In this document: piece by piece, positions 1,452-61,028 of the stretch
Numbering within the stretch: the first letter of the stretch is position 1
How the letters are laid out: the number at the start of each line of letters is the position of its first letter
Virus record (IMG/VR): IMGVR_UViG_3300032242_001941
Coordinates: 47,612 to 111,611 of that record
DNA from: a virus
Reading direction: 5' to 3' (one strand)
DNA: 64,000 bases
The notes under the pieces: generated by a model
The model's input: only the letters and a program-made list of their open reading frames with translations
What the model was told of the DNA's origin: nothing
Database searches by the model: none
Program-made: the position numbers and the translations under genes

Positions 1452-3092
<1,641 letters not shown>

Positions 3093-3100
3093 TTTAGCGT

Positions 3101-3173
3101 TATAAATAATAGTGTGGATGCCGATGGTCGGGTCCACACTATATGTCACTTGCTTAATTTAAAGGAGAAAACA
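3101..3173 (+). promoter_or_regulatory. late promoter plus ROSE-like RNA thermometer (copy 2) upstream of hsp20
   Basis: TATAAATA 3101; hairpin TAGTGTGGA...TCCACACTA containing GATGCC/GGGTC; CTTGCTTA before AAGGAG. Confidence 0.7.
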
Positions 3174-3620
3174 ATGACAAGACTCACAACTCTGGACCTT
3201 AGTCCATTCTATCGTAACTCAATCGGTGTAGACAAATTATTTGATCGTATGATGCATCAAATTGATACAGCGGCCGCATCAACTACAAACTATCCACCTT
3301 ACAACATTGTAAAAACTGGCGAGAACACCTACGAAATTCAAGTAGCCGTTGCTGGATTTACCGAAGGTGAAGTTACTGTAAACGTCAATGAAGGTCAATT
3401 AATCATCTCAGGTGAAAAGCTGTCTACAGATTTGCCCGAAGGACACATATATGAACACCAAGGCATCAGTGCTCGTCGTTTTATACGCACATTTACCTTG
3501 GCCGACTATGTAGAAGTAACCGATGCTCAAAGTCAGGATGGTATTCTGACTGTTAGCTTAGAGCGTCAAGTTCCTGAGGCACTTCTGCCGAAGACTATTG
3601 CGATCACTTACACAAAATAG
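3174..3620 (+). CDS. small heat shock protein Hsp20 (IbpA-like)
   Basis: NYPPYNIVK, VAVAGF, HQGISARRFIRTFTLADYVEV, DGILTV. Confidence 0.95.
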   Translation: MTRLTTLDLSPFYRNSIGVDKLFDRMMHQIDTAAASTTNYPPYNIVKTGENTYEIQVAVAGFTEGEVTVNVNEGQLIISGEKLSTDLPEGHIYEHQGISARRFIRTFTLADYVEVTDAQSQDGILTVSLERQVPEALLPKTIAITYTK

Positions 3621-3679
3621 TATAATATAGTAAATACAGTGGAGGGCACAGTGCTCTCCACTACAATAAAGGATTGGAT

Positions 3680-3988
3680 ATGTCACAAGCAGGAACTGTA
3701 ACAAAAACACAAATTAATCAAGGTCTTGCCGAACCTCCTATGTTTAAAATTATCTATCTTAATGATAATGCCACACCAATGGAATTTGTAATTGATACGT
3801 TAATGGATTCATTTAATTATAGTTCAGAAACAGCTGAAAAAATTACCATGGACATTCACGAAGCCGGAAGTGCTGTGGTTGCTGTATTGCCTTATGAAAT
3901 TGCCGAACAAAAAGGTATTGAAGTTACAGTGCAAGCCCGAAACAACAACTATCCTTTACAAGTCAAGCTAGAACCCGAAACAATTTAA
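3680..3988 (+). CDS. clpS: ClpS N-end-rule adaptor
   Basis: PPMFKIIYLNDNATPMEFV, IHEAGSAVV, YEIAEQK, YPLQVKLE. Confidence 0.92.
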   Translation: MSQAGTVTKTQINQGLAEPPMFKIIYLNDNATPMEFVIDTLMDSFNYSSETAEKITMDIHEAGSAVVAVLPYEIAEQKGIEVTVQARNNNYPLQVKLEPETI

Positions 3989-4776
3989 AAGTCAATTTCA
4001 ATTCGACGAGGATAAAACACTCGCTGACACCAGTCGGTGTTGCCACGTCCCCTAGGATTGGAAATATATCTTATTCCTCCTAGGTTTTGATCTACAGGCC
4101 TGTGATAGTGTCCAAAGCACCAGGTATGAATTTTTTGTTCAGTATCCTCGTCAATGGTGCGAGAAATATGACTGTTCCCCATGCCGTTAAATCTCCAGGT
4201 GTTGGCCAGATCAGGATCGTGTGCAATAACCCATGGTGCAGGAACGGTGTGACTAACCACAACAATGGCACCCACTTCCATATGGGTTTGTAATTTACGA
4301 ACACTGTTCATCATATAAGATGCATCGTTGTAGGCCACGCCCATGATGTTTGTGGCGGTTGAATTATCAATACCAAAATGATCTTGTGTATGTTGTATGC
4401 TAGCATCTACGCTTATGCTAGAATCAAAATCGTAGGTCCACCAAGCGTTGGTACCTAACAGAGCTACTCCGTTGACTATGATCACATTATCCTGCATATA
4501 AACCACATTTTTTATAGATTTGATATCTTTAGCAAGGGCTCGATAACTAGCACCCAAATCGTCAAGATAATCTTTATGTTCTTCGTTACCGTCGATATAA
4601 AAAACACCTCCAGGATAACATTGACCAAGGTGAGCCAGGGTGTCTAATAAACGTTGCCGGTCACGGGCTACATCACCGGCTACTACACAGTAAGGAGCCG
4701 TGGCTTGACTAGACCAATCAAAGTCGTTCCAAGTTTCAACGTGGAGGTCAGAAATTAAATCAAAAGCAAAAGTCAT
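3985..4776 (-). CDS. calcineurin-like metallophosphoesterase
   Basis: SDLH, AGD, GNEE, SHTVP, FGHYH, NPRG motifs. Confidence 0.85.
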   Translation of the reverse strand: MTFAFDLISDLHVETWNDFDWSSQATAPYCVVAGDVARDRQRLLDTLAHLGQCYPGGVFYIDGNEEHKDYLDDLGASYRALAKDIKSIKNVVYMQDNVIIVNGVALLGTNAWWTYDFDSSISVDASIQHTQDHFGIDNSTATNIMGVAYNDASYMMNSVRKLQTHMEVGAIVVVSHTVPAPWVIAHDPDLANTWRFNGMGNSHISRTIDEDTEQKIHTWCFGHYHRPVDQNLGGIRYISNPRGRGNTDWCQRVFYPRRIEIDF

Positions 4777-4800
4777 GATAACTATTTACAAGGATCGCAT

Positions 4801-5151
4801 ATGAACATAATATTTAAAACCAATGCAACAAATATAGATGAAAAATATACAGTTTTAGACTTAGATACCTTTAGTTTACCTGACGGATCTTTACATACTG
4901 CCTGTTGTGTAGTTGAAAACATACCCGTTGCTGAATTTCCAATAATCACCCGGTTAAAAGAATTACACGTTAATCTTATAAGTAATTATGGTAAACGCAA
5001 TTGGAACTATTGCGAACAGGCCATTGAGCAACTTATGGGCAAATGGGGAGGCGAAGTAGACTCATTTTATCAAGAGTTAAACGCCCGTATACAAAAACTT
5101 AAAACCCAAAATTTAGACGATTCCTGGAGCCCTGTTATACCAAAAGCCTAA
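4801..5151 (+). CDS. stand-alone homologue of the adenylate-cyclase C-terminal tail
   Basis: CEQAIEQLMGKWGGEVDSFY...QNLDDSW aligns by eye with AAAMCTKMKGTFGGQMDKYY...QNLPDNW of 10029..12080. Confidence 0.65.
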   Translation: MNIIFKTNATNIDEKYTVLDLDTFSLPDGSLHTACCVVENIPVAEFPIITRLKELHVNLISNYGKRNWNYCEQAIEQLMGKWGGEVDSFYQELNARIQKLKTQNLDDSWSPVIPKA

Positions 5152-5209
5152 ACAACAATCTTAAGATAAATACCCACATAATAATAAGACTCTAAAAAAG
5201 GAGCTGGGT

Positions 5210-5491
5210 ATGAATGAAGTTTTTAAGATCATTGGAGATCTAGGATTTCCAGTAGCAGCCGCACTTGCAGGCGGTTATTTTGTATATCTCACAATCAAAC
5301 TGTTATTAGCTGGCGTACTGTCAGCTGTTAAACAGATGGCTGGAATTATCACAGCCTTAGACAATCGTGTTAAAACTATGAATCACGACGTTATCCGCAT
5401 TGATACCGTTGTGAGTAATGCTTTGGGCTTACGCCCAGACGTAGAGCGCATAAGCCGCGCAGACGGTAAAAACGATGCAAGGAGAGACTGA
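5210..5491 (+). CDS. small membrane/coiled-coil protein A (holin-like architecture)
   Basis: IIGDLGFP followed by a TM helix and a coiled coil; paralogue of 6054..6338. Confidence 0.6.
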   Translation: MNEVFKIIGDLGFPVAAALAGGYFVYLTIKLLLAGVLSAVKQMAGIITALDNRVKTMNHDVIRIDTVVSNALGLRPDVERISRADGKNDARRD

Positions 5492-5757
5492 TGTGGACTC
5501 GTGAAGAACGTCGTTGGGCAATAATGAATCGCAAAGAGTATATTGAACGTAATATGGCTATTTGTGATGAAGAAATTAAAACAAGAAAACTTCAAAAGTT
5601 TCTAGGAGCTAAAACAATGGATTTTGATATTGAATATTTGGTCATACGCTTGCATGACATAGCCAGAGAAGTAGAACAACGTATTGGATTTGGTGAATTA
5701 AGCAAAGACATTCGCAAGTGCGCTGATCGTTTAAGTAATATCAATAAGCCCGTATAA
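5491..5757 (+). CDS. hypothetical protein
   Basis: ORF coupled to both neighbours. Confidence 0.55.
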   Translation: MWTREERRWAIMNRKEYIERNMAICDEEIKTRKLQKFLGAKTMDFDIEYLVIRLHDIAREVEQRIGFGELSKDIRKCADRLSNINKPV

Positions 5758-5951
5758 TGAAATACTACGACTACGAATGGGATTTAGAACCTAATAGAAT
5801 TTTATTAGATTCAGAACTTAACGTAAATGCACTAGGTTGGCAAACCGGCGACTATTTCAAAGTTTCTACTGTCAATGGTCGTGCTATGTTAGTCAAAGTA
5901 GATCCGTTAGAAAAATTCTTAAGAGATGGAGTTAGCAATGAAAAAACATAA
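5757..5951 (+). CDS. hypothetical protein
   Basis: TAATG-coupled ORF. Confidence 0.6.
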   Translation: MKYYDYEWDLEPNRILLDSELNVNALGWQTGDYFKVSTVNGRAMLVKVDPLEKFLRDGVSNEKT

Positions 5952-6054
5952 TCCATATAAATTACCACCGCATCAAATTTGGACTGATTGGGATCTAGCC
6001 AAGTTTGCTCTGATAGCATTTGTGGTCGGCATTGCGGTAGGAGCAATATTATAA
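5938..6054 (+). CDS. 38-aa single-TM protein (not in ORF track)
   Basis: MKKHNPYKLPPHQIWTDWDLAKFALIAFVVGIAVGAIL*, SD GGAG, TAATG overlap with next gene. Confidence 0.5.
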   Translation: MKKHNPYKLPPHQIWTDWDLAKFALIAFVVGIAVGAIL

Positions 6055-6338
6055 TGGGCGGCCTAGCAGAAATTATCAGCAAGTACGGATTCCCAATGGT
6101 CATGGCAGTTGGCATGGGCTTTATCATACGCATGGTCTGGGAATGGTGTACCAAGGAAATCAAACCAGTTATCAATGATGCCAACGCAGTTCTTATTGGT
6201 CTTATTGATCGCATCCGTATGTTGGACAATGATTTGATTCGGTTGAATCAAAAAGTTAATACTGTGTTGCATCTACGTGGCAAAAGTATTGATCACGAGC
6301 GTGTAGAAGCTGAACAACAGATCAACGAAAAATCGTAA
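6054..6338 (+). CDS. small membrane/coiled-coil protein B
   Basis: IISKYGFP + TM + LIDRIRMLDNDLIRL; paralogue of 5210..5491. Confidence 0.65.
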   Translation: MGGLAEIISKYGFPMVMAVGMGFIIRMVWEWCTKEIKPVINDANAVLIGLIDRIRMLDNDLIRLNQKVNTVLHLRGKSIDHERVEAEQQINEKS

Positions 6339-6391
6339 TACCGCCACTTAATATCTGTAAAAAACTATTAAATAATAGTAGGAGCTAGAGT

Positions 6392-6883
6392 ATGAAAAAA
6401 ATAATAATAATAACTCTCTTAGCTTCTGCGCCTGCGTTTGTCACGGCTGCAGAACTACAACACTATTTTAGTAGCCCGGCCTTTAGCGGCGTTGGATACA
6501 GTAGCCATGTCTTGACTTTACAACAGCTAGAAACTCAACAAAAAGAAAAAAATAAATTGGCCGCAGATGCTATTGCAGCCAAAGCAGCCGCAGATGCTGC
6601 AAATACTCCACAGGCTAGATTTTTAGCCAACATTGAAAGTAGAGTCTATGCTCAACTAGCCAAACAAATTACCGATAGTTTGTTTGGTACAGACGGTGTG
6701 CCTAGTTGTAAAGCAGTAAATCCTTACAGTCAGTGCGGATCTGTAAACATAGCGGGCAATGATATCACTTGGCGCCTGGGCGACCCAGCAAACGCCAGCG
6801 AAAAAGGCATGTTAGTAATCAACATTGCTGGTGCCACCGGCAACGTTCAAATGATGGTGCCATCTGGAACCTTTGCTTTTTAA
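6392..6883 (+). CDS. csgF: curli assembly protein CsgF-like
   Basis: signal peptide, mature N-terminus AELQHYFSSPAFSG resembles the CsgF NPxFGG motif; RVYAQLAKQITDSLFG; directly upstream of csgG. Confidence 0.75.
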   Translation: MKKIIIITLLASAPAFVTAAELQHYFSSPAFSGVGYSSHVLTLQQLETQQKEKNKLAADAIAAKAAADAANTPQARFLANIESRVYAQLAKQITDSLFGTDGVPSCKAVNPYSQCGSVNIAGNDITWRLGDPANASEKGMLVINIAGATGNVQMMVPSGTFAF

Positions 6884-6892
6884 GAAAAATAT

Positions 6893-7708
6893 ATGAAACA
6901 TACCGTAATTTCCTTGCTTGCAATTGCTTTATTAGGTGGATGTGCCATTGGCAGTGGTATCCGCGAACAGCTGACAAACAAGCAGTTTGACGAACCAGTG
7001 ATAGAAAAAAGTATTGTATTAGCACAGCCAAAAAATCAACTAGCACCACCGGCAGATGGACCTATTGCTGTGGCTGTGTACGGATTCCAAGATAAAACAG
7101 GGCAACGCAAAAGTCAACTTGCTGTGGCCAGTTTAAGCAGTGCTGTAACACAAGGCGGCGAAAGTTACTTGATTAAAGCCTTACAAGATGTAGGCGATGG
7201 CCGCTGGTTCACTGTGGTAGAAAGAGTTGGGCTAGACAACCTAATCAAAGAACGACAAATGATTCGCCAGGGTCGCGAACAGTATCAAGGACGTGATGCT
7301 AAACCGTTACCGCCAATGGTATTTGCCGGAATGATTGTGGAAGGTGCTATTGTGGGCTATGATTCAAATACTCTTACAGGTGGCGCCGGTATGCGTATCT
7401 TTGGTATTGGCGGCCAAACACAGTATCAAAGTGATACAGTCACGATTAGTTTGAGAACAGTCAGTGTTCTTACTGGAGAAGTATTGACCACAGTTACAGT
7501 TACAAAAACTGTGTTGAGTTACATGGATAAATTTACAGTATTGAGATTTATCAATGACGGAACTAACTCCTTAGAATCAGAAATAGGAGGTAGTATAAAC
7601 GAAAGTATTAACCGAGCAACAAGCGCAGCCATACAAGCCGCAGTGGTTGATACGATTCGTGAAGGTGCTCGTAAAGGACACTGGAATTTTAAAGAAGTAA
7701 AAAAATAA
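6893..7708 (+). CDS. csgG: CsgG/HfaB-family outer-membrane secretion lipoprotein
   Basis: lipobox LGGC; VAVYGFQDKTGQRK, SSAVTQG, WFTVVERVGLDNLIKERQMIR, EGAIVGYDSN. Confidence 0.92.
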   Translation: MKHTVISLLAIALLGGCAIGSGIREQLTNKQFDEPVIEKSIVLAQPKNQLAPPADGPIAVAVYGFQDKTGQRKSQLAVASLSSAVTQGGESYLIKALQDVGDGRWFTVVERVGLDNLIKERQMIRQGREQYQGRDAKPLPPMVFAGMIVEGAIVGYDSNTLTGGAGMRIFGIGGQTQYQSDTVTISLRTVSVLTGEVLTTVTVTKTVLSYMDKFTVLRFINDGTNSLESEIGGSINESINRATSAAIQAAVVDTIREGARKGHWNFKEVKK

Positions 7709-7758
7709 CAATAAAAAATAGGAGCTTAGATTGGGGATAACCCAACTTTGAACAAACA

Positions 7759-8556
7759 ATGAAAACAAACAAATTAAATACAGCCTATACAATATTTGCT
7801 GTGTTGGCATTTGTTTCATTAAATGCAGCCGCACAAAATGCGGCCACTGGACCTAACAAGGTTTACCTGGAACAGATTGGTAGCACTAATACCATCACAG
7901 TTCAACAGGTTGGCGGCACTAACAATGTTGGCGGCACCGGCGGCAATGTAACAGTAGATACCAATGGCGTAACTACTTTTACACCCGATGCCCCTGGCAG
8001 TACTAACTATGCTACAATCACGGGTGCTAACAATGTGGTTGGACTTAGTCAGACTGGTAGTAACAACACGGCTCAGTACAATATCACTGGCAGTAACAAT
8101 ACCTATAACAGTACTGTGGCTGGCAATAACAATCAAACTCGTTTGATCATGGGTGGTGCCAATGCCACAGCCAATTACAATACTGTAACAGAAACAGTTA
8201 CTGGCAGTAATAACTTGATATTACAAAACGTTCAAGGCAGTAATGTGGTCAGTGGTATTGGAATTGTTGGCAGTACCAACCAAGTGACTACTGATTTATT
8301 AAGTAACCGCGGAAGTTCTAATATACAAATCACTGGCAGTACCAACGTGATCAATGCTGAACAGACGGGCGGTGCTGGTGCCAATGGGCACATATTGATT
8401 AATAATGTGATAGGCGACTATAACAGTATTACCACCCAGCAACAGGGTTCTATTGATACAACAATCGATCTTAAGACCACAGGTAGTTTCAATACCGTCA
8501 CGGTACGGTCCAGCGACTCGGCCATTGTCAATTCAAGAACTGCTGTAGCAAGGTAA
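7759..8556 (+). CDS. curlin-repeat (CsgA/CsgB-like) secreted protein
   Basis: signal peptide; many ~11-aa Q/I-x-G-x-x-N units (NKVYLEQIGSTNTITVQQVGGTN; SQTGSNNTAQYNITGSNN). Confidence 0.75.
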   Translation: MKTNKLNTAYTIFAVLAFVSLNAAAQNAATGPNKVYLEQIGSTNTITVQQVGGTNNVGGTGGNVTVDTNGVTTFTPDAPGSTNYATITGANNVVGLSQTGSNNTAQYNITGSNNTYNSTVAGNNNQTRLIMGGANATANYNTVTETVTGSNNLILQNVQGSNVVSGIGIVGSTNQVTTDLLSNRGSSNIQITGSTNVINAEQTGGAGANGHILINNVIGDYNSITTQQQGSIDTTIDLKTTGSFNTVTVRSSDSAIVNSRTAVAR

Positions 8557-8557
8557 T

Positions 8558-9658
8558 ATGCAGAAACTAATCACAGCCCTTTGCGTTATGGTTGTATGTA
8601 ACGCCTGGGCTGGCATTGGCACGGTTTCAGAACACAAAGGTACAGCCTGCGAGATCACACGAGACAAAAATAAATTATCTGGGCACAAAGATGCCATAGT
8701 TGAAAGTATGGACACATATACCACCGGTGCATGTGTCAGCAACATTACATTTAAAGATGACACAAAGGTTCGCATAACTGAGAACAGTCGCTTGCTTATT
8801 GATGATTTTGTATTTGATCCCAAGGCCAGCGATGCCGGCAAACTGGCTCTTAAAGTGAGCGCAGGCACTGTGCGCTATGCGTCGGGCCAGATTGCTAAAA
8901 ATAGTCCACAAAAAGTAAATATTCAAACGCCAACAGCCACAGTGGCAGTTCGTGGTACTGATTTTACCATGACCGTTGACGAAGCTGGACAAAGTCTGAT
9001 AATGTTAATACCTAGTTGTAAAGATATCAACGAAGTTAAACAATATGAATTAGAAGAGAATAGATGCAAAGTTGGACGTATCGAAGTAAGCACTCTTGCT
9101 GGGTCAGTGGTCTTAGACCAAGCATTTGAAGCAACCTATGTTATGAGTGCTCTAATGGCACCAACTCCACCTATTGTTGTCAACACTGTTGAAAGTAAAA
9201 TTAATAATAATCTTATTATTGTTAAACCTGTTGAAGTTCAACGAGCTATTAAAGAAGCAACAAAAACCAAACAAGAACAAGAACTTGACGACATCGAAGC
9301 CGACGCGGCTCGACGACTAGCACAGGCTGTGGCCAAATCCGCCGAAGCCATTGAGGAAGCTCGTGTTTCCAAGTTTGTTGACCTTGCCAAACGGTCTGGG
9401 TGTAATTCTGCTACCAGTGTCTGTGTGATATGGGATAGACCGTCTGAAACAGAAATGATCAGTCGTGGACGTGGTATTGCATTCCGCCTAACAGAAAATG
9501 AGCATTATGCCGAAGTCAAGACACTTGGGTATGTATCCAACACCACAATTAACATTACACATAATGATATGCCATCATCGATCACTATCGGCGATGGCTC
9601 TCCTGGTGGAACTATTGTAACTATTAAACAAAACAATGGAGTATTAAAGTCTAAGTAG
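8558..9658 (+). CDS. secreted FecR-domain protein
   Basis: signal peptide; ITFKDDTKVRITENSRL, GTVRYASG, IQTPTATVAVRGTDF. Confidence 0.88.
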   Translation: MQKLITALCVMVVCNAWAGIGTVSEHKGTACEITRDKNKLSGHKDAIVESMDTYTTGACVSNITFKDDTKVRITENSRLLIDDFVFDPKASDAGKLALKVSAGTVRYASGQIAKNSPQKVNIQTPTATVAVRGTDFTMTVDEAGQSLIMLIPSCKDINEVKQYELEENRCKVGRIEVSTLAGSVVLDQAFEATYVMSALMAPTPPIVVNTVESKINNNLIIVKPVEVQRAIKEATKTKQEQELDDIEADAARRLAQAVAKSAEAIEEARVSKFVDLAKRSGCNSATSVCVIWDRPSETEMISRGRGIAFRLTENEHYAEVKTLGYVSNTTINITHNDMPSSITIGDGSPGGTIVTIKQNNGVLKSK

Positions 9659-9753
9659 CCCAAGAGTGTATACGTAGTTTATTTTTTAATGGGCAGTACT
9701 TAAATACTATGCAGGCATATTATAACTATAACAAGCCGGCTACGCAGGATTTT

Positions 9754-9782
9754 ATACCCACTTTACAGTGGGTATTTTTTTT
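9754..9782 (+). terminator. intrinsic terminator
   Basis: ATACCCAC-TTTACA-GTGGGTAT followed by a T-run. Confidence 0.7.
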
Positions 9783-9811
9783 GTTAAATACTAGTCATAC
9801 CGGAGATACAA

Positions 9812-10036
9812 ATGACTGACTTTTTTAAACCCGATCCAAGAATTACTGACCCTGCACTAAGAGATTTAGAAAAAAAAGTGCATTGGCTTATGTCACAAAT
9901 TTATGCCGGAAGCTGGGCGCAGATGTGTAGTGATGCAGGGCTCGATTGTAATACCGTGTATAATACATTTCCAGATAATTTTGATATAAACAATATTAGA
10001 CCAGACGCAGAAGAAGTTCAAAATAACGATGCTTAA
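9812..10036 (+). CDS. hypothetical protein
   Basis: SD GGAG, TAAATA upstream, overlaps the cyclase start. Confidence 0.6.
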   Translation: MTDFFKPDPRITDPALRDLEKKVHWLMSQIYAGSWAQMCSDAGLDCNTVYNTFPDNFDINNIRPDAEEVQNNDA

Positions 10037-12080
10037 AAAAATCTTAACAAGTCCGTGGACTGCTCTATTGACGCTGGCCTTAGTAGTGGGGTTACGGGTA
10101 GCAGACCCTACATTTGTTGAAAGCGTTCGTCTACGCTATTTTGATACGCTTATAACTAGTAAGCCTGCAGAAGTTATAGGTGTTAGTGTTGTAAACATTG
10201 ATGAAAAGGCATTAGAAAAATATGGACAATTTCCTTTCTCCCGCGATCAGTACGCTGCCATCGTCCGGGATTTATATCGCCGCAATGCTGGTCTTGTTGT
10301 TTTTAACATCCTTACTCCTGATCGCGATCGCATGGGGCATGATGCAGAATACATCCAAGCCCTTCGCCAGTATCCAACAATTCTCCCTAACATTGGGTCG
10401 CAAACTTCTCGTAATACTCCAAAAGCTCCTGGCTCAGTAGTCATAGGCCCATTTGGTCTAGATGCCTTTGTTACCTATCCTGGTATTATTGCTAACCAAC
10501 CTGCTATTGAAAATGCCGCAGTCGGTGTTGGTATTGTAAATACCTTGCCAGAAGTAGACGGTGTCGTTCGTCGCATGCCAATGGTAGTAGCATATGATGG
10601 CAAGTTGTACCCGAGCCTTGCTATGGAAACACTTCGAGTAGCTGGCGCCGACACCACTTTCCAAGTGAAGATCAACGAAACAGGCGTTGAGAAAATGCGC
10701 ATTCCAAAGTTTGGAGCTATTACAACAGATTCATTGAGCCGTATTTGGGTTGACTGGTCACTGGTACCAAGTAAATATGGTTTAACGGACTTGCCAAAAG
10801 ATTTTGAAGGTGAAATTGTTATTGTTGGTGTATCAGCACAAGGACTTGCAAACCCTGTAGCTACAAGCCTTGGCGAAATGCTACCACAAGATTTACAAGC
10901 AAGTGTATTGGGTACTGTAATTGCCAATAGAGATCGTCCGGCAATTACTCGCCCAGATTGGGCCGATGGTGCAGAAATTGTATTTGTCGTTACGGCAGGT
11001 ATTGTATTGTTATTTTTATCAAGGTGGGTTTATGTTGGACTTTGTTCATCTGTTTTTATACTCGGCGGGAGTATATTGCTGTCTCGTTGGGCTTATGGAA
11101 ATTACGCTTGGCTTGTGGACGCGACTATTCCAGTCGTTGGCCTTGGCCTTGTGCTTCTTCATGCTTATGGTGTTAAGTTCGTAAGTGAGTTTTTACAAAA
11201 GCAAGCAATCAAGAAACAGTTTGCTGGCTACTGCTCCAAAGAAGTAGTGGAGCTATTGCAAAAAGATCCAGACCTAATCAAACGCGGTGTGCGCAAAGAT
11301 GTCAGTGTCATGTTCTCAGACCTACGTGGCTTTACTCCTATCGGTGAACACTATGGTGATGATGTTGCTGGACTTGGAAAATATATGAACGGTTATATGG
11401 ATAGCATTAGTTGTCCTATTCTAGATAACAAAGGTATGATTATTAAGTATGTAGGTGATGCATCGATGCACATACACGGCGCTCCTATTGAAGATCCTAA
11501 TCACGCACATACTATTGTTAAGGTAGGACTTGAGATGTTAGATGCTGTGGATGAATACACTAAACTAATGGAAGCACAAGGATTACCTCCTGCCGCAATG
11601 GGTTGGGGTTGTAACTCAGGTATTGGCTTTATTGGTGAAATGGGAAGCACAGATAGACACAGCTATGACATCTTAGGTGACATGGTTTCAACAGCTGCAC
11701 GACTAGAAGCACGTTGTAAGGCCTATGGTGTGTTATGTATTATTGGTGCTGAAACATACAATAGAACTCGAGACGATTTCTTTTACTTGTTACTAGACAA
11801 CTTGCAACCAAAAGGCAAAACAGTAGCAGACTTAATCTATACAGTATTACGTACTAAAGGTGTAGACTACAGTAAAGATAAGGCACAACACGAAAAAATG
11901 CATGACTTGTACCGAGCTAAAAAGTTTGATGAAGCCGCCGCTATGTGTACTAAAATGAAAGGCACCTTTGGCGGGCAGATGGACAAGTACTACAAGATAT
12001 GGATTGAACGTTGCGAGTTTATGAAAGAACAAAATTTACCAGATAACTGGAATGGCGAATTTGTGGCACACGAAAAATAG
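10029..12080 (+). CDS. CHASE2-domain class III adenylate cyclase
   Basis: N-terminal TM, CHASE2 (VVNIDEKALEKYGQFPFSR, DGVVRR), 3 TMs, cyclase motifs FSDLRGFT, KYVGDA, YDILGDMVSTAARLE. Confidence 0.93.
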   Translation: MLKKILTSPWTALLTLALVVGLRVADPTFVESVRLRYFDTLITSKPAEVIGVSVVNIDEKALEKYGQFPFSRDQYAAIVRDLYRRNAGLVVFNILTPDRDRMGHDAEYIQALRQYPTILPNIGSQTSRNTPKAPGSVVIGPFGLDAFVTYPGIIANQPAIENAAVGVGIVNTLPEVDGVVRRMPMVVAYDGKLYPSLAMETLRVAGADTTFQVKINETGVEKMRIPKFGAITTDSLSRIWVDWSLVPSKYGLTDLPKDFEGEIVIVGVSAQGLANPVATSLGEMLPQDLQASVLGTVIANRDRPAITRPDWADGAEIVFVVTAGIVLLFLSRWVYVGLCSSVFILGGSILLSRWAYGNYAWLVDATIPVVGLGLVLLHAYGVKFVSEFLQKQAIKKQFAGYCSKEVVELLQKDPDLIKRGVRKDVSVMFSDLRGFTPIGEHYGDDVAGLGKYMNGYMDSISCPILDNKGMIIKYVGDASMHIHGAPIEDPNHAHTIVKVGLEMLDAVDEYTKLMEAQGLPPAAMGWGCNSGIGFIGEMGSTDRHSYDILGDMVSTAARLEARCKAYGVLCIIGAETYNRTRDDFFYLLLDNLQPKGKTVADLIYTVLRTKGVDYSKDKAQHEKMHDLYRAKKFDEAAAMCTKMKGTFGGQMDKYYKIWIERCEFMKEQNLPDNWNGEFVAHEK

Positions 12081-12132: not shown

Positions 12133-12657
12133 ATGACCCGCACTATTCACAAATATCAATTACATCCATTTTGGGATGATGAATACAAACATTTATCCTA
12201 TGTTCATGAATCATTTAATGATCCTGAATTAACTAACACTTGGTTGGCCCAGGGTTATCCTGATCAATTTACCGGCGACATGTGTGATATGCGCAGTCCA
12301 CAACCCACGTGGAATCAACGATTTGTGGACATCTTTCGAGGGCAAGGGTGGCGAGACGTTGGTACCAGTTATTATCGAATGAATACTGGTACAGTATTAC
12401 CTACTCACAGTGACTTATACCTAAAATACATCGAACTTTTTAACTTACGAGGTCGCGAACATACCATACGCCGTGCTATAATATTTTTAGAAGATTGGCA
12501 ACCGGGCCACTATGCTGAATATCGAAATATTGCCTATGTGAATTGGCGAGCCGGTGCCACAATTGAATGGACATATGATACTCCACACATGGCAGCTAAT
12601 TTAGGATTAACTCCAAGATACACTTTACAAATAACAGGACACATAGATGGTCAATAG
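12133..12657 (+). CDS. 2OG-Fe(II) oxygenase-like (double-stranded beta-helix) protein
   Basis: LPTHSD (HxD)...PHMAAN (H)...RYTLQIT. Confidence 0.75.
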   Translation: MTRTIHKYQLHPFWDDEYKHLSYVHESFNDPELTNTWLAQGYPDQFTGDMCDMRSPQPTWNQRFVDIFRGQGWRDVGTSYYRMNTGTVLPTHSDLYLKYIELFNLRGREHTIRRAIIFLEDWQPGHYAEYRNIAYVNWRAGATIEWTYDTPHMAANLGLTPRYTLQITGHIDGQ

Positions 12658-13570
12658 TCGCAATGAATGGGATCCGTTAGAAGCTATTATTGTAGGTAGT
12701 GCTACCAATGCTAATTGGCCAATGACTGATCCAGTGTTTGCTGAAGAAGCTAGGAATAGCCTGTGGACCAAAACACCGGCACCCGGTGGCCCAGTGCCGC
12801 AGTTTATCGTTGATGAAGCTAATCGCGAATTAGACATCTTGTCAGAAACCCTAGTTCGATATGGCGCTACAGTTTATCGTCCTCGACCAATGGATTTTGT
12901 TAAACGCCAAGGCATGTACAACTATTGTCCAAGAGATCGACTACTAGTGGCCGGCGATACTGTAGTTGACTGCAACATGATGTATCCGTGTCGCAATCAG
13001 GAAATTGAAAATTATTATAGATTACTTGCAGATGCTTGTAACACATATACTATGCCTAGAGACCAAGATATGACCCTGGATGCCGCAAACATTTGTCGAC
13101 TTGGAGATACTTGGTTATTTTTACAATCAGCATCGGGTAGTATTTCTGCGTACTATTGGTTAAAGTCAAAATTCCCTAAAATTACAATTGAGCTGTGTAA
13201 CTTTTACGCAGGTGTCCATATTGATTCTACTATTACTCCTTTGCGTGAAGGACTAGTCATGTTAAATGCCGGACGTGTTACTGAAGATAACTGTCCACAA
13301 GCATTTCAAGATTGGGAAAAAATTTGGGTCACAGAAAACATGATTGTAGCACAAGACTTTTATCAATATCCTTATGCGTCAAAATGGATAGCTATGAATA
13401 TGTTGGTCTTGGATCCAGAAACTGTAATCATAGATGCCGCACAAACAGAGCTAATTACTATACTGAAGTCCCGAGGAATTGATTCAATTCCCTTGACACT
13501 AAGCCATAGTAGAACACTAGGCGGCGGATTTCATTGTGTAACCTTGGATACTCGTAGACGTCATGCATAA
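12647..13570 (+). CDS. amidinotransferase (glycine/inosamine-phosphate amidinotransferase family)
   Basis: NEWDPLEAIIVG, CPRD, DAAN, HIDST, LGGGFHCVTLD. Confidence 0.9.
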   Translation: MVNSRNEWDPLEAIIVGSATNANWPMTDPVFAEEARNSLWTKTPAPGGPVPQFIVDEANRELDILSETLVRYGATVYRPRPMDFVKRQGMYNYCPRDRLLVAGDTVVDCNMMYPCRNQEIENYYRLLADACNTYTMPRDQDMTLDAANICRLGDTWLFLQSASGSISAYYWLKSKFPKITIELCNFYAGVHIDSTITPLREGLVMLNAGRVTEDNCPQAFQDWEKIWVTENMIVAQDFYQYPYASKWIAMNMLVLDPETVIIDAAQTELITILKSRGIDSIPLTLSHSRTLGGGFHCVTLDTRRRHA

Positions 13571-47559: not shown

Positions 47560-47723
47560 TGAACATAGATCAAGCTCTAGCAGAAATTATTGCTTACAGT
47601 GTAGCCCATGGTGTAGATAGCCTGGGCGGCATTGAGTCGATGGTCCGGAATTACAAGTCATTACCGGTTGAGCAACGACTAGCAGTCGACGTGTTTATGT
47701 CCGAAACAAAGGAGGCAGTATAA
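47559..47723 (+). CDS. hypothetical protein
   Basis: TAATG coupling. Confidence 0.55.
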   Translation: MNIDQALAEIIAYSVAHGVDSLGGIESMVRNYKSLPVEQRLAVDVFMSETKEAV

Positions 47724-57705: not shown

Positions 57706-58187
57706 ATGTCTAGAATTTATTGCCGTACACCATCTACTGGATATCCAGAAAATCTTGTATTAGCCAATGTACCCGCCGGTACATTTACTACTATTCCGGG
57801 TGCCAACTGTCCTGACTACTCAGTGCCAGATCCTGCAAATCAATATGAACAACGTGATCCACTATTTCCTGAACGGGCAATTGTACCTGGACAGATATTT
57901 TTTCTTACCCCATTGTCAATTGTAAACAAAAGTGGTAATCAACAGTCCTTGACAGTTCAATTGTTACAAGAATCTGGTAATGTAATTAATTTTGGCACTG
58001 CTGTTGTTCCTGCATATGATACAGCATATATTCCATTAAATGGCAGAAGTCTTTTAAAGAGAACCGGTAATGCGACGGCTAATGGAGATCAATTGCAAGT
58101 GAAAGCCACTGCCGATAATGTGTTTGATGTATGGACGGCGGCAGAAGGATCTACCGCTAGTCAAAATCTTGGAGTCTTTATACCATA

Positions 58188-58188
<1 letters not shown>
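57706..58188 (+). CDS. small structural protein of fibre module
   Basis: SD AAGGAG; sits between the two fibre genes. Confidence 0.65.

Positions 58189-61028
<2,840 letters not shown>

Follow-up and report, generated by a model that had tools for sequence, protein, structure and literature searches.

Curli-type export genes carried by phages have been described on several occasions. The phage csgF/csgG cluster was first reported by Zaragoza-Solas et al. in 2020 (PMC7029224), and Buchholz et al. in 2022 discussed it as a possible lysis-timing pore, with FecR and cyclase not mentioned (PMC9004378). The region as a whole was described by Wittmers et al. in 2022 as one or two "histidine kinases", CsgF, CsgG, CsgA/B, FecR, a second CsgA/B, and an adenylate cyclase (PMC9599517). 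According to these authors, the region occurs in podo- and myoviruses of SAR11, with FecR and the cyclase as putative regulators; this viral type VIII secretion system (T8SS) region was found at all 65 ocean virome stations examined, the pelagiphage versions were expressed in metatranscriptomes, and an alphaproteobacterial origin with transfer between phage families was argued (PMC9599517). Here, we analysed a stretch of 64,000 nucleotides (the window) from IMG/VR virus record IMGVR_UViG_3300032242_001941 (positions 47,612 to 111,611 of this 111.6-kb record; completeness 32% by CheckV), in which positions 4801-12080 hold a curli-type gene block together with genes for a FecR-fold protein and a CHASE2 nucleotide cyclase. 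Judged from its gene content and order, the block is the already published viral curli/T8SS region, the window holding another, somewhat reduced copy of it in a jumbo T4-like phage. As to its function, we tentatively favor, at somewhat less than an even chance, that the state of phage curli export is coupled via the periplasmic FecR-fold protein to the CHASE2 cyclase.

The same genes, in the same order, are found in the Pelagibacter phage HTVC008M (gp011-gp019) and in the Methylophilales phage Melnitz (gp97-gp104), at identities of 35-54%. When the region was compared with cultured phages by megablast, no match was obtained, and protein searches were needed. The pelagiphage versions reside in a 140-kb pelagimyophage or a podovirus, whereas a close complete relative of the window's phage (356,865 bp) encodes a T4-type Gp23 capsid protein, so that a T4-like jumbo phage with a genome of about 350 kb carries the block. 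Moreover, unlike many pelagiphage versions, the window lacks the second curlin (frequent there, but not universal), and it adds three small open reading frames (ORFs) and a paralogue of the cyclase tail. Its cyclase also forms its own unit behind a terminator-like hairpin, and shows an Asp/Ser combination where the HTVC008M enzyme has Ser/Asn. On the + strand, the block reads o116, tmA, o88, o64, tmB, CsgF, CsgG, curlin1, FecR, o74, and CHASE2 cyclase; its features are as follows, with the source of each assignment in parentheses.

4801..5151, + strand: o116, an ORF of 116 codons and free-standing copy of the C-terminal helical tail of the cyclase (BLASTP and profile)
5210..5491, + strand: tmA, a small membrane protein with a coiled coil, phrog_18771 (PHROG)
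5491..5951, + strand: o88 and o64, two small ORFs between tmA and tmB (loci survey)
5988..6338, + strand: tmB, a paralogue of tmA (PHROG, profiles)
6364..6374, + strand: TAAATA late-promoter-like motif 5′ of csgF (sequence reading)
6392..6883, + strand: CsgF-like secreted protein (Pfam, PHROG)
6893..7708, + strand: CsgG outer-membrane lipoprotein, the T8SS channel (Pfam, NCBIfam, structures)
7759..8556, + strand: curlin1, a secreted curlin-repeat fibre subunit (profile, AlphaFold2 [AF2] model)
8558..9658, + strand: secreted FecR-fold protein, with a FecR domain, a long helix and a C-terminal beta domain (Pfam, AF2)
9754..9785, + strand: terminator-like hairpin with a T-run, between fecR and the cyclase unit (sequence)
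9812..10036, + strand: o74, a small ORF of 74 codons, found in this window only (ORF)
10029..12080, + strand: CHASE2 receptor-type class III nucleotide cyclase with a C-terminal helical tail (Pfam, PDB matches)

All of the genes named in the original prediction (csgF, csgG, a curlin gene, fecR, a small ORF, and the cyclase gene) were found where it had placed them, on the + strand. The part at 4801-6391, which it had left undescribed, adds further members to the block, namely the cyclase-tail paralogue and the tmA/tmB pair, and these belong to the module. Linkage was surveyed by running profiles, built from the window proteins and their phage homologues, on about 160 viral loci (given L-numbers below). 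In the cyclase-anchored loci with 10 kb of flank on both sides (n = 39), CsgF, CsgG, curlin, FecR, tmA, and tmB were all present in 39/39. When loci were anchored on CsgG and extended at least 9.4 kb downstream (n = 48), FecR was found in 48/48 and the cyclase in 46/48. A search of 50,697 cultured phage records placed tmA, CsgG, FecR, and cyclases of this type in the same 6 records and in no others. The original prediction had staked its reading on FecR and the cyclase accompanying csgFG in relatives, and they do so in essentially every locus with enough flank.

The usual order in relatives is csgF-csgG-curlin1-fecR-curlin2-(variable cargo)-cyclase, followed by tmB-o64-tmA on the opposite strand; the tm genes lie 5′ of csgF in the window, Melnitz, and HTVC008M. 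Either the csg-fecR unit or the cyclase is inverted in L046, L058, L082, and L220, with all three units still adjacent. Between the window's phage, Melnitz, and HTVC008M, the block has been retained at an identity of only 35-45%. The small ORF o64 was detected between tmA and tmB in 38/39 of the full-flank loci and o88 in a subset, and homologues of o116 stand directly 5′ of csgF in a subset of relatives. The fecR and cyclase genes overlap in the bacterial loci with the full module (see below) as well as at some phage loci (intergenic distances of -33 and -6 nt). In the window, they are separated by a spacer of only 370 nt that holds the hairpin, a TAAATA motif, and o74. The latter is the small ORF noted originally and occupies the slot of curlin2 and the cargo genes in relatives; no homologue was found in the approximately 160 related loci, and it matched no family. 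In L004, the interval between curlin2 and the cyclase (7347-9090) contains an LpxH-like metallophosphoesterase gene and a 332-codon ORF (8092-9090).

Co-variation was measured from pairwise distances over 77 non-redundant loci, in the manner of partial Mantel and mirror-tree analyses. The proteins fell into blocks: CsgF, CsgG, curlin1, and FecR (0.45-0.63); CHASE2 and the transmembrane (TM) region (0.82); the catalytic domain and the tail (0.86); and tmA and tmB (0.88). The FecR N-domain was the only part of the csg block that was appreciably correlated with CHASE2 and tmA (0.41-0.46), although the FecR C-domain is encoded nearer the cyclase gene. Distances of the FecR C-domain tracked those of curlin1 and CsgF (partial r of 0.29 and 0.20, respectively). 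This pattern would fit a FecR bridge without proving one.

The FecR protein was recognized by Pfam FecR (E 9e-11), and carries a cleavable-looking signal peptide with the FecR domain directly after it. The AF2 model, computed with 68 homologues, had a predicted local distance difference test score (pLDDT) of 91.1. Residues 49-216 of this model superpose on the C-terminal cell-surface-signalling domain of PupR (6OVK chain R; Z 14.7, root-mean-square deviation 2.6 Å over 134 residues), which was solved in complex with its outer-membrane partner. This fold is followed by a long helix (225-279), after which six strands form a C-terminal beta domain (289-358) that had no match in the PDB. The original prediction had described curlin-like strands at the C-terminus. 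The tail is indeed conserved as a motif, but its support from curlin profiles is marginal, with 3/140 tails at E ≤ 0.01 versus 0 of the shuffled ones. No N-terminal anti-sigma domain and no membrane anchor were found in the protein, and searches of the five phage genomes (the window's record, two complete jumbo relatives, Melnitz, and HTVC008M) turned up no STN-domain transducer. The phage protein therefore shares the cell-surface-signalling fold, yet is not a member of the anti-sigma family.

FecR/PupR cell-surface signalling (TonB-dependent transducer, anti-sigma factor, and extracytoplasmic function [ECF] sigma factor) thus offers a known system whose periplasmic domain has the same fold as the phage FecR protein. 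Its logic is also alike, running from an outer-membrane protein to a periplasmic FecR domain and on to an inner-membrane output. In contrast to those systems, the phage protein has neither the anti-sigma domain nor the anchor, no STN transducer is encoded, no ECF sigma factor is evident, and the output would be the cyclase. In line with the original prediction, FecR-domain genes and CHASE2 genes are common neighbours in bacteria, often overlapping. Such pairs include the Burkholderia BiofilmReg operon (PMC5192318) and S. meliloti cyaD1, which adjoins smc02177 (PMC5498481). As in the phage block, the gene for a secreted FecR-domain protein adjoins that for a CHASE2 membrane receptor, and the two often overlap. 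In S. meliloti, the output likewise comes from a class III adenylate cyclase, and the CHASE2 cyclases respond to a protein signal from outside the cell, which enters via the outer-membrane beta-barrel NsrA (PMC13001267). Unlike the phage block, the Burkholderia and S. meliloti pairs are without a T8SS and curlins, and their readers are known (Clr, or a response regulator); moreover, the FecR-domain gene of S. meliloti is dispensable for signal perception.

The cyclase was matched by Pfam CHASE2 (E 7e-36, residues 15-325) and Guanylate_cyc (E 1.5e-13, residues 423-568). Hydrophobic segments, read from the sequence, lie before and after CHASE2, and the cyclase is a four-TM protein. Its best PDB matches are adenylate cyclases, and when aligned to the solved enzymes it keeps five of six catalytic residues: the metal-binding D431 and D477, the Lys/Asp pair K473 and D547, and R558. 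The Lys/Asp pair is of the ATP type, and cyclic AMP (cAMP) is the putative product. The protein o116 corresponds to a free copy of the last ~100 residues of the cyclase; it aligned with cyclase residues 618-674 by BLASTP (E 1e-6), and its profile matched the cyclases of relatives at E-values down to 9e-11. No known family was matched by o116. Stand-alone proteins of ~100 residues resembling the cyclase tail also exist as separate clusters in the ESM Atlas.

The export parts were identified as follows. CsgF scored 31 bits against Pfam CsgF (E 3e-7; cut-off 25.8) and matched phrog_35372 at E 6e-30. CsgG was recognized by Pfam (E 9e-49) and by NCBIfam CsgG (E 4e-49), aligned with E. coli CsgG structures over residues 51-267 (E 2e-45), and has the L-G-G-C lipobox that had been noted originally. 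The positions aligned to what we take to be the constriction-loop residues of E. coli CsgG (Y51, N55, and F56) differ, with Ser in place of N55 and Leu in place of F56. In some relatives, CsgG reaches 375-434 aa (L004:1539-2843, L012:4495-5745, and L024:4201-5328) through 100-160 additional C-terminal residues that the window's CsgG does not have. Curlin1 has a signal peptide. It was not matched by Pfam Curlin_rpt, and a profile of curlin1 with 14 phage homologues (A4) matched the curlin-repeat protein 8c50 (E 8e-18) and CsgA 8enq (E 8.5e-4) in the PDB. The AF2 model of curlin1 (pLDDT 80.6) is an all-beta strand-turn-strand repeat with 19 short beta strands; given that a Foldseek search of this model against the PDB returned no significant match, the sequence profile is what decides its identity as a curlin.

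As had been stated in the original prediction, csgE and csgC were absent, with no match to CsgE or CsgC models in the five phage genomes, Melnitz and HTVC008M thus being alike with the window record in this respect. CsgE and a CsgC-type chaperone are also absent from alphaproteobacterial systems (PMC9599517), and therefore are not required for that T8SS subtype. These data show that the phage encodes a CsgG/CsgF outer-membrane channel and a secreted curlin-repeat substrate for it, without the CsgE/CsgC of the gammaproteobacterial type. The window copy has no second curlin, whereas one was present in 31/39 relatives. In those relatives, curlin2 is a carbohydrate-binding domain fused to curlin repeats, the domain being PA14/GLEYA (L004 and HTVC008M) or F5/8 type C (L012, L047, and L078). 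Its architecture comprises a lectin domain, Curlin_rpt repeats, and a Cys-rich C-terminal motif (L004:5135-6610, L012:7764-9680, L047:4457-6565, and L002:8639-9964), and by its domains this lectin-curlin fusion looks like an adhesin. The curlin2 slot of L054 (6359-8917) encodes an 852-residue secreted protein that ends in an aromatic residue and has no Pfam match.

Regarding the time of expression, TAAATA motifs lie at 5167, 6369, and 9785, that is, 5′ of tmA, csgF, and the cyclase unit. The latter two had been pointed out before and were borne out; the first is a third copy. The motif is enriched in non-coding DNA, with 18 of its 40 copies in the 9% of the window that is non-coding. The canonical T4 octamer TATAAATA was not found in the window. 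From the placement and enrichment of the TAAATA motif, late expression of the block is a plausible prediction. A look-up of sequencing runs listed no RNA run with the stretch and a single run that contains it, which may be the source sample and thus says nothing about expression or habitat.

In the coupling that we tentatively favor, CsgG/CsgF would, probably late in infection, export curlin1 to the surface of the infected cell, where fibres would form; in most relatives, the lectin-curlin fusion would be exported as well. The FecR-fold protein would remain periplasmic, in the role played by the FecR/PupR domains of cell-surface signalling, with its C-terminal beta domain facing the curli export apparatus or its subunits and its N-terminal FecR domain facing the periplasmic CHASE2 domain. 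Through cAMP, the cyclase would then signal how export, the fibre, or contact at the surface stands, and tmA/tmB may be phage-specific inner-membrane partners of the cyclase. Because the FecR protein has a PupR-type fold and FecR-CHASE2 pairs are common in bacteria, an envelope-to-cytoplasm sensor is, by analogy, a plausible and reasonable reading. To this extent, the "sensor chain rather than a biofilm module" of the original prediction stands; its second half is unsupported, given that the closest bacterial CsgG proteins belong to ordinary alphaproteobacterial curli operons and that the lectin-curlin fusions of relatives are adhesin-like.

Several observations weigh against this coupling. 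The 9-bp stem and T-run at 9754-9785 resemble a terminator that splits fecR from the cyclase unit. There is free recombination between the csg-FecR block and the cyclase (in L004, the cyclase is 84% but CsgG only 44% identical to that of the window). Once other parts were controlled for, the correlation between the FecR N-domain and CHASE2 was weak (partial r of 0.10-0.17, p 0.06-0.008), the partial Mantel values of the FecR N-domain being 0.10-0.18 overall. Since CsgG passes unfolded chains only, an inward signal through it is, to our knowledge, without precedent. In the cyclase, the transition-state Asn is replaced by Ser554, and Ser is found at this position in ~110 phage cyclases; an Asn-to-Ser change in the mammalian cyclase strongly lowers kcat. 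Finally, with Pfam cNMP_binding as the only model used (GAF and other receptors were not searched), no cyclic-nucleotide (cNMP)-binding domain was found in the five phage genomes. For the SAR11 host family, taken as the 61 genomes of the family that holds a MAG (metagenome-assembled genome) labelled Candidatus Pelagibacter, such domains were found in 2/61 and class III cyclases also in 2/61. With 0/5 phage genomes and 2/61 family genomes positive, the host CRP-type regulation suggested by the original prediction was not upheld, and for SAR11 phages it appears unlikely.

The published view of the region is that of a fibre or adhesion module with its own regulators: curli-type fibres with lectin heads would coat the infected cell, and FecR and the cyclase would regulate secretion from upstream rather than read it out. 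The coat would serve cell aggregation ("sibling capture") or would block superinfection. We regard this view as the main rival, somewhat less likely than the favored coupling. The closest bacterial CsgG genes sit in ordinary csgF-csgG-multi-curlin operons, and the second curlin of relatives bears PA14/GLEYA or F5/8 type C carbohydrate-binding domains. Wittmers et al., moreover, read FecR and the cyclase as putative T8SS regulators and discussed aggregation and superinfection defence, and cAMP feeds into curli control in E. coli (PMC9599517). However, the window is without the lectin-curlin fusion, yet its FecR, cyclase, and tmA/tmB are intact; no transcription factor or cNMP receptor through which cAMP could control the operon was found in the phages; and no clumping of Melnitz-infected cells was seen (Buchholz et al., PMC9004378).

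It was also considered whether the cyclase might act without a classical cAMP receptor, by making a nucleotide for a new phage or host target, by interfering with host cyclic-nucleotide immunity, or by draining ATP, with the periplasmic parts only timing it. The dearth of cNMP-binding domains in the five phage genomes and of both these domains and class III cyclases in the SAR11 family speaks for this, as do the cyclase tails that exist as separate small proteins and a conserved difference at the active site: the Asp/Ser combination (Asn to Ser, with Asp) occurs in ~110 phage sequences and sets most phage enzymes apart from bacterial relatives, which, like the HTVC008M-type phages, have Ser or Thr with Asn. 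Yet ordinary adenylate cyclases have the same Lys/Asp pair and the same two metal-binding Asp residues, the host of the jumbo phage may have CRP, and the receptor search covered Pfam cNMP_binding only. Such an action is, in our judgement, distinctly improbable.

It is very unlikely that CsgG/CsgF forms a gated pore for lysis timing, pinholin- or secretin-like, as proposed for Melnitz from modelling and synteny (PMC9004378). The altered constriction-loop residues of CsgG and the lack of an encoded CsgE gate would suit such a pore, but CsgG sits in the outer rather than the inner membrane and therefore cannot depolarise the cell; curlin substrates are encoded beside CsgG, contrary to the premise of that proposal, and the thyX/ssrA synteny cited for it is not seen in the window. 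Least probable of all is an import role, in which nutrients or cofactors would enter through an open CsgG channel and FecR would be a sensor related to iron, a suggestion (PMC7029224 and PMC9599517) that is in keeping with the missing CsgE gate but takes its "iron" link from the family name alone, for a protein without the anti-sigma and TM parts of FecR, and that faces the absence of an STN-domain transducer and leaves CsgF and the curlins unexplained.

Bacterial counterparts were also compared. The nearest are the alphaproteobacterial curli operons (Dueholm 2012, as cited in PMC7029224), in which csgF-csgG are joined by several curlin-repeat genes; they agree with the phage block in the csgF-csgG-curlin order, their CsgG shows 44-53% identity, and they have no CsgE, CsgC, or CsgD. 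In contrast to the phage block, almost all of these operons are without FecR, CHASE2 cyclase, and tmA/tmB. The full csgF-csgG-curlin-fecR-cyclase set was found at four chromosomal bacterial loci, in two Henriciella MAGs and two Caulobacteraceae MAGs (L235:6466-12489, L315, L319:6083-12103, and L320). These loci have a host-like G+C (GC) content of 50-57% and overlapping fecR and cyclase genes, and are without tmA/tmB. They contradict the published statement that FecR and the cyclase never occur within bacterial T8SS operons. The full module is present in only 2/262 genomes of the family of the Henriciella MAG. In L319, an SpdA/CpdA-like phosphodiesterase is encoded directly 5′ of the module (4794-5654). 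The layout of the bacterial module echoes that of the S. meliloti locus, which we take to be clr-cyaD1-smc02177(FecR)-smc02178-spdA.

The other bacterial CHASE2 cyclases closest to the phage enzyme (25-29% identity) often have a FecR-domain neighbour but no CsgG. In a quick maximum-likelihood tree, the module-linked cyclases formed one clade apart from these, with the four bacterial copies nested in the phage diversity (SH-aLRT [Shimodaira-Hasegawa-like approximate likelihood ratio test] support 99-100). Given this nesting, transfer may have run from phage to bacterium, and a bacterial origin of the whole block was not adopted. Low-GC copies of the module in its phage form, tmA/tmB included, were also seen on many MAG contigs assigned to unrelated phyla (L084-L095, L100, L238, L245, L300, and L318), whose phyla or bins include Bacteroidota, Verrucomicrobiota, Planctomycetota, a bin labelled Pelagibacter, and Legionellales; by their content, these look like misbinned phage contigs, and one holds a T4-type Gp23.

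The favored coupling can be extended into a wider proposal, which as a whole we consider improbable: the block would be a self-contained mobile trans-envelope sensor, in which the soluble FecR-fold protein replaces CsgE at the periplasmic face of CsgG/CsgF and reports the state of export or of the fibre to the CHASE2 cyclase, the product is read by a so far unrecognised receptor, and the bacterial copies are phage-derived. With canonical cAMP receptors lacking in both the phages and SAR11-type hosts, candidates for this receptor would be the stand-alone cyclase-tail protein or tmA/tmB.

Regarding tmA and tmB themselves, both belong to phrog_18771 (E 8e-32 and 4e-26, respectively), and their profiles match each other's genes, so that they are paralogues; pairwise BLASTP gave no alignment between them, whereas profiles and PHROGs did link them. 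Common to both are a G-F-P motif, a conserved helix, and a single hydrophobic segment. tmA is 52-54% identical to the genes located just 5′ of csgF in Melnitz and HTVC008M. The real start of tmB is probably the ATG near 6054, given that its homologues begin at an internal Met (alignment A5). The small genes upstream of csgF were labelled histidine kinases by Wittmers et al. (PMC9599517), and tmA/tmB are equated with these by gene position. No feature of a kinase was seen in them: there is no kinase domain, there is no conserved His in alignment A5, and PDB profile matches were to coiled coils only. Pfam returned nothing for tmA/tmB at E ≤ 10 except a 13-residue YvrJ match, and in the ESM Atlas, tmA and the cyclase tail matched only viral clusters without names, apart from a YvrJ lead that stayed below the threshold. 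Neither o88 nor o64 matched any family.

The surroundings of the block in the window hold further genes. Upstream, at 1461-3988, lies a host-like chaperone set, comprising groEL (543 aa), an Hsp20-type protein (3114-3620), and a ClpS-like ORF (3674-3988). A calcineurin-like metallophosphoesterase is encoded on the minus strand at 3985-4776, divergently from o116, and weak homologues of it adjoin tmA in several relatives. It was considered as a cAMP phosphodiesterase and rejected; its sole match was to a phosphoesterase subfamily of generic type (E 3.5e-13, well short of the cut-off), and it does not truly resemble the CpdA/SpdA-like enzyme found beside the bacterial module. Downstream, at 12133-13570, o174 and an overlapping 307-codon ORF (12647-13570) recur at most 10 kb from the module in many relatives (L004, L006, L020, and L047). 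The GC content is 52.5% at 58001-60000, against about 41% across the rest of the window.

The module is among the most widespread multi-gene accessory modules of aquatic phages, and is now also found in jumbo phages of ~350 kb. Through it, a secretion system, a fibre, and a nucleotide cyclase reach cells that are without these, SAR11 among them. Knowing the function of this block would tell how infected cells are altered by phages in their surface and signalling, and would provide a first ligand or partner for a CHASE2 domain.

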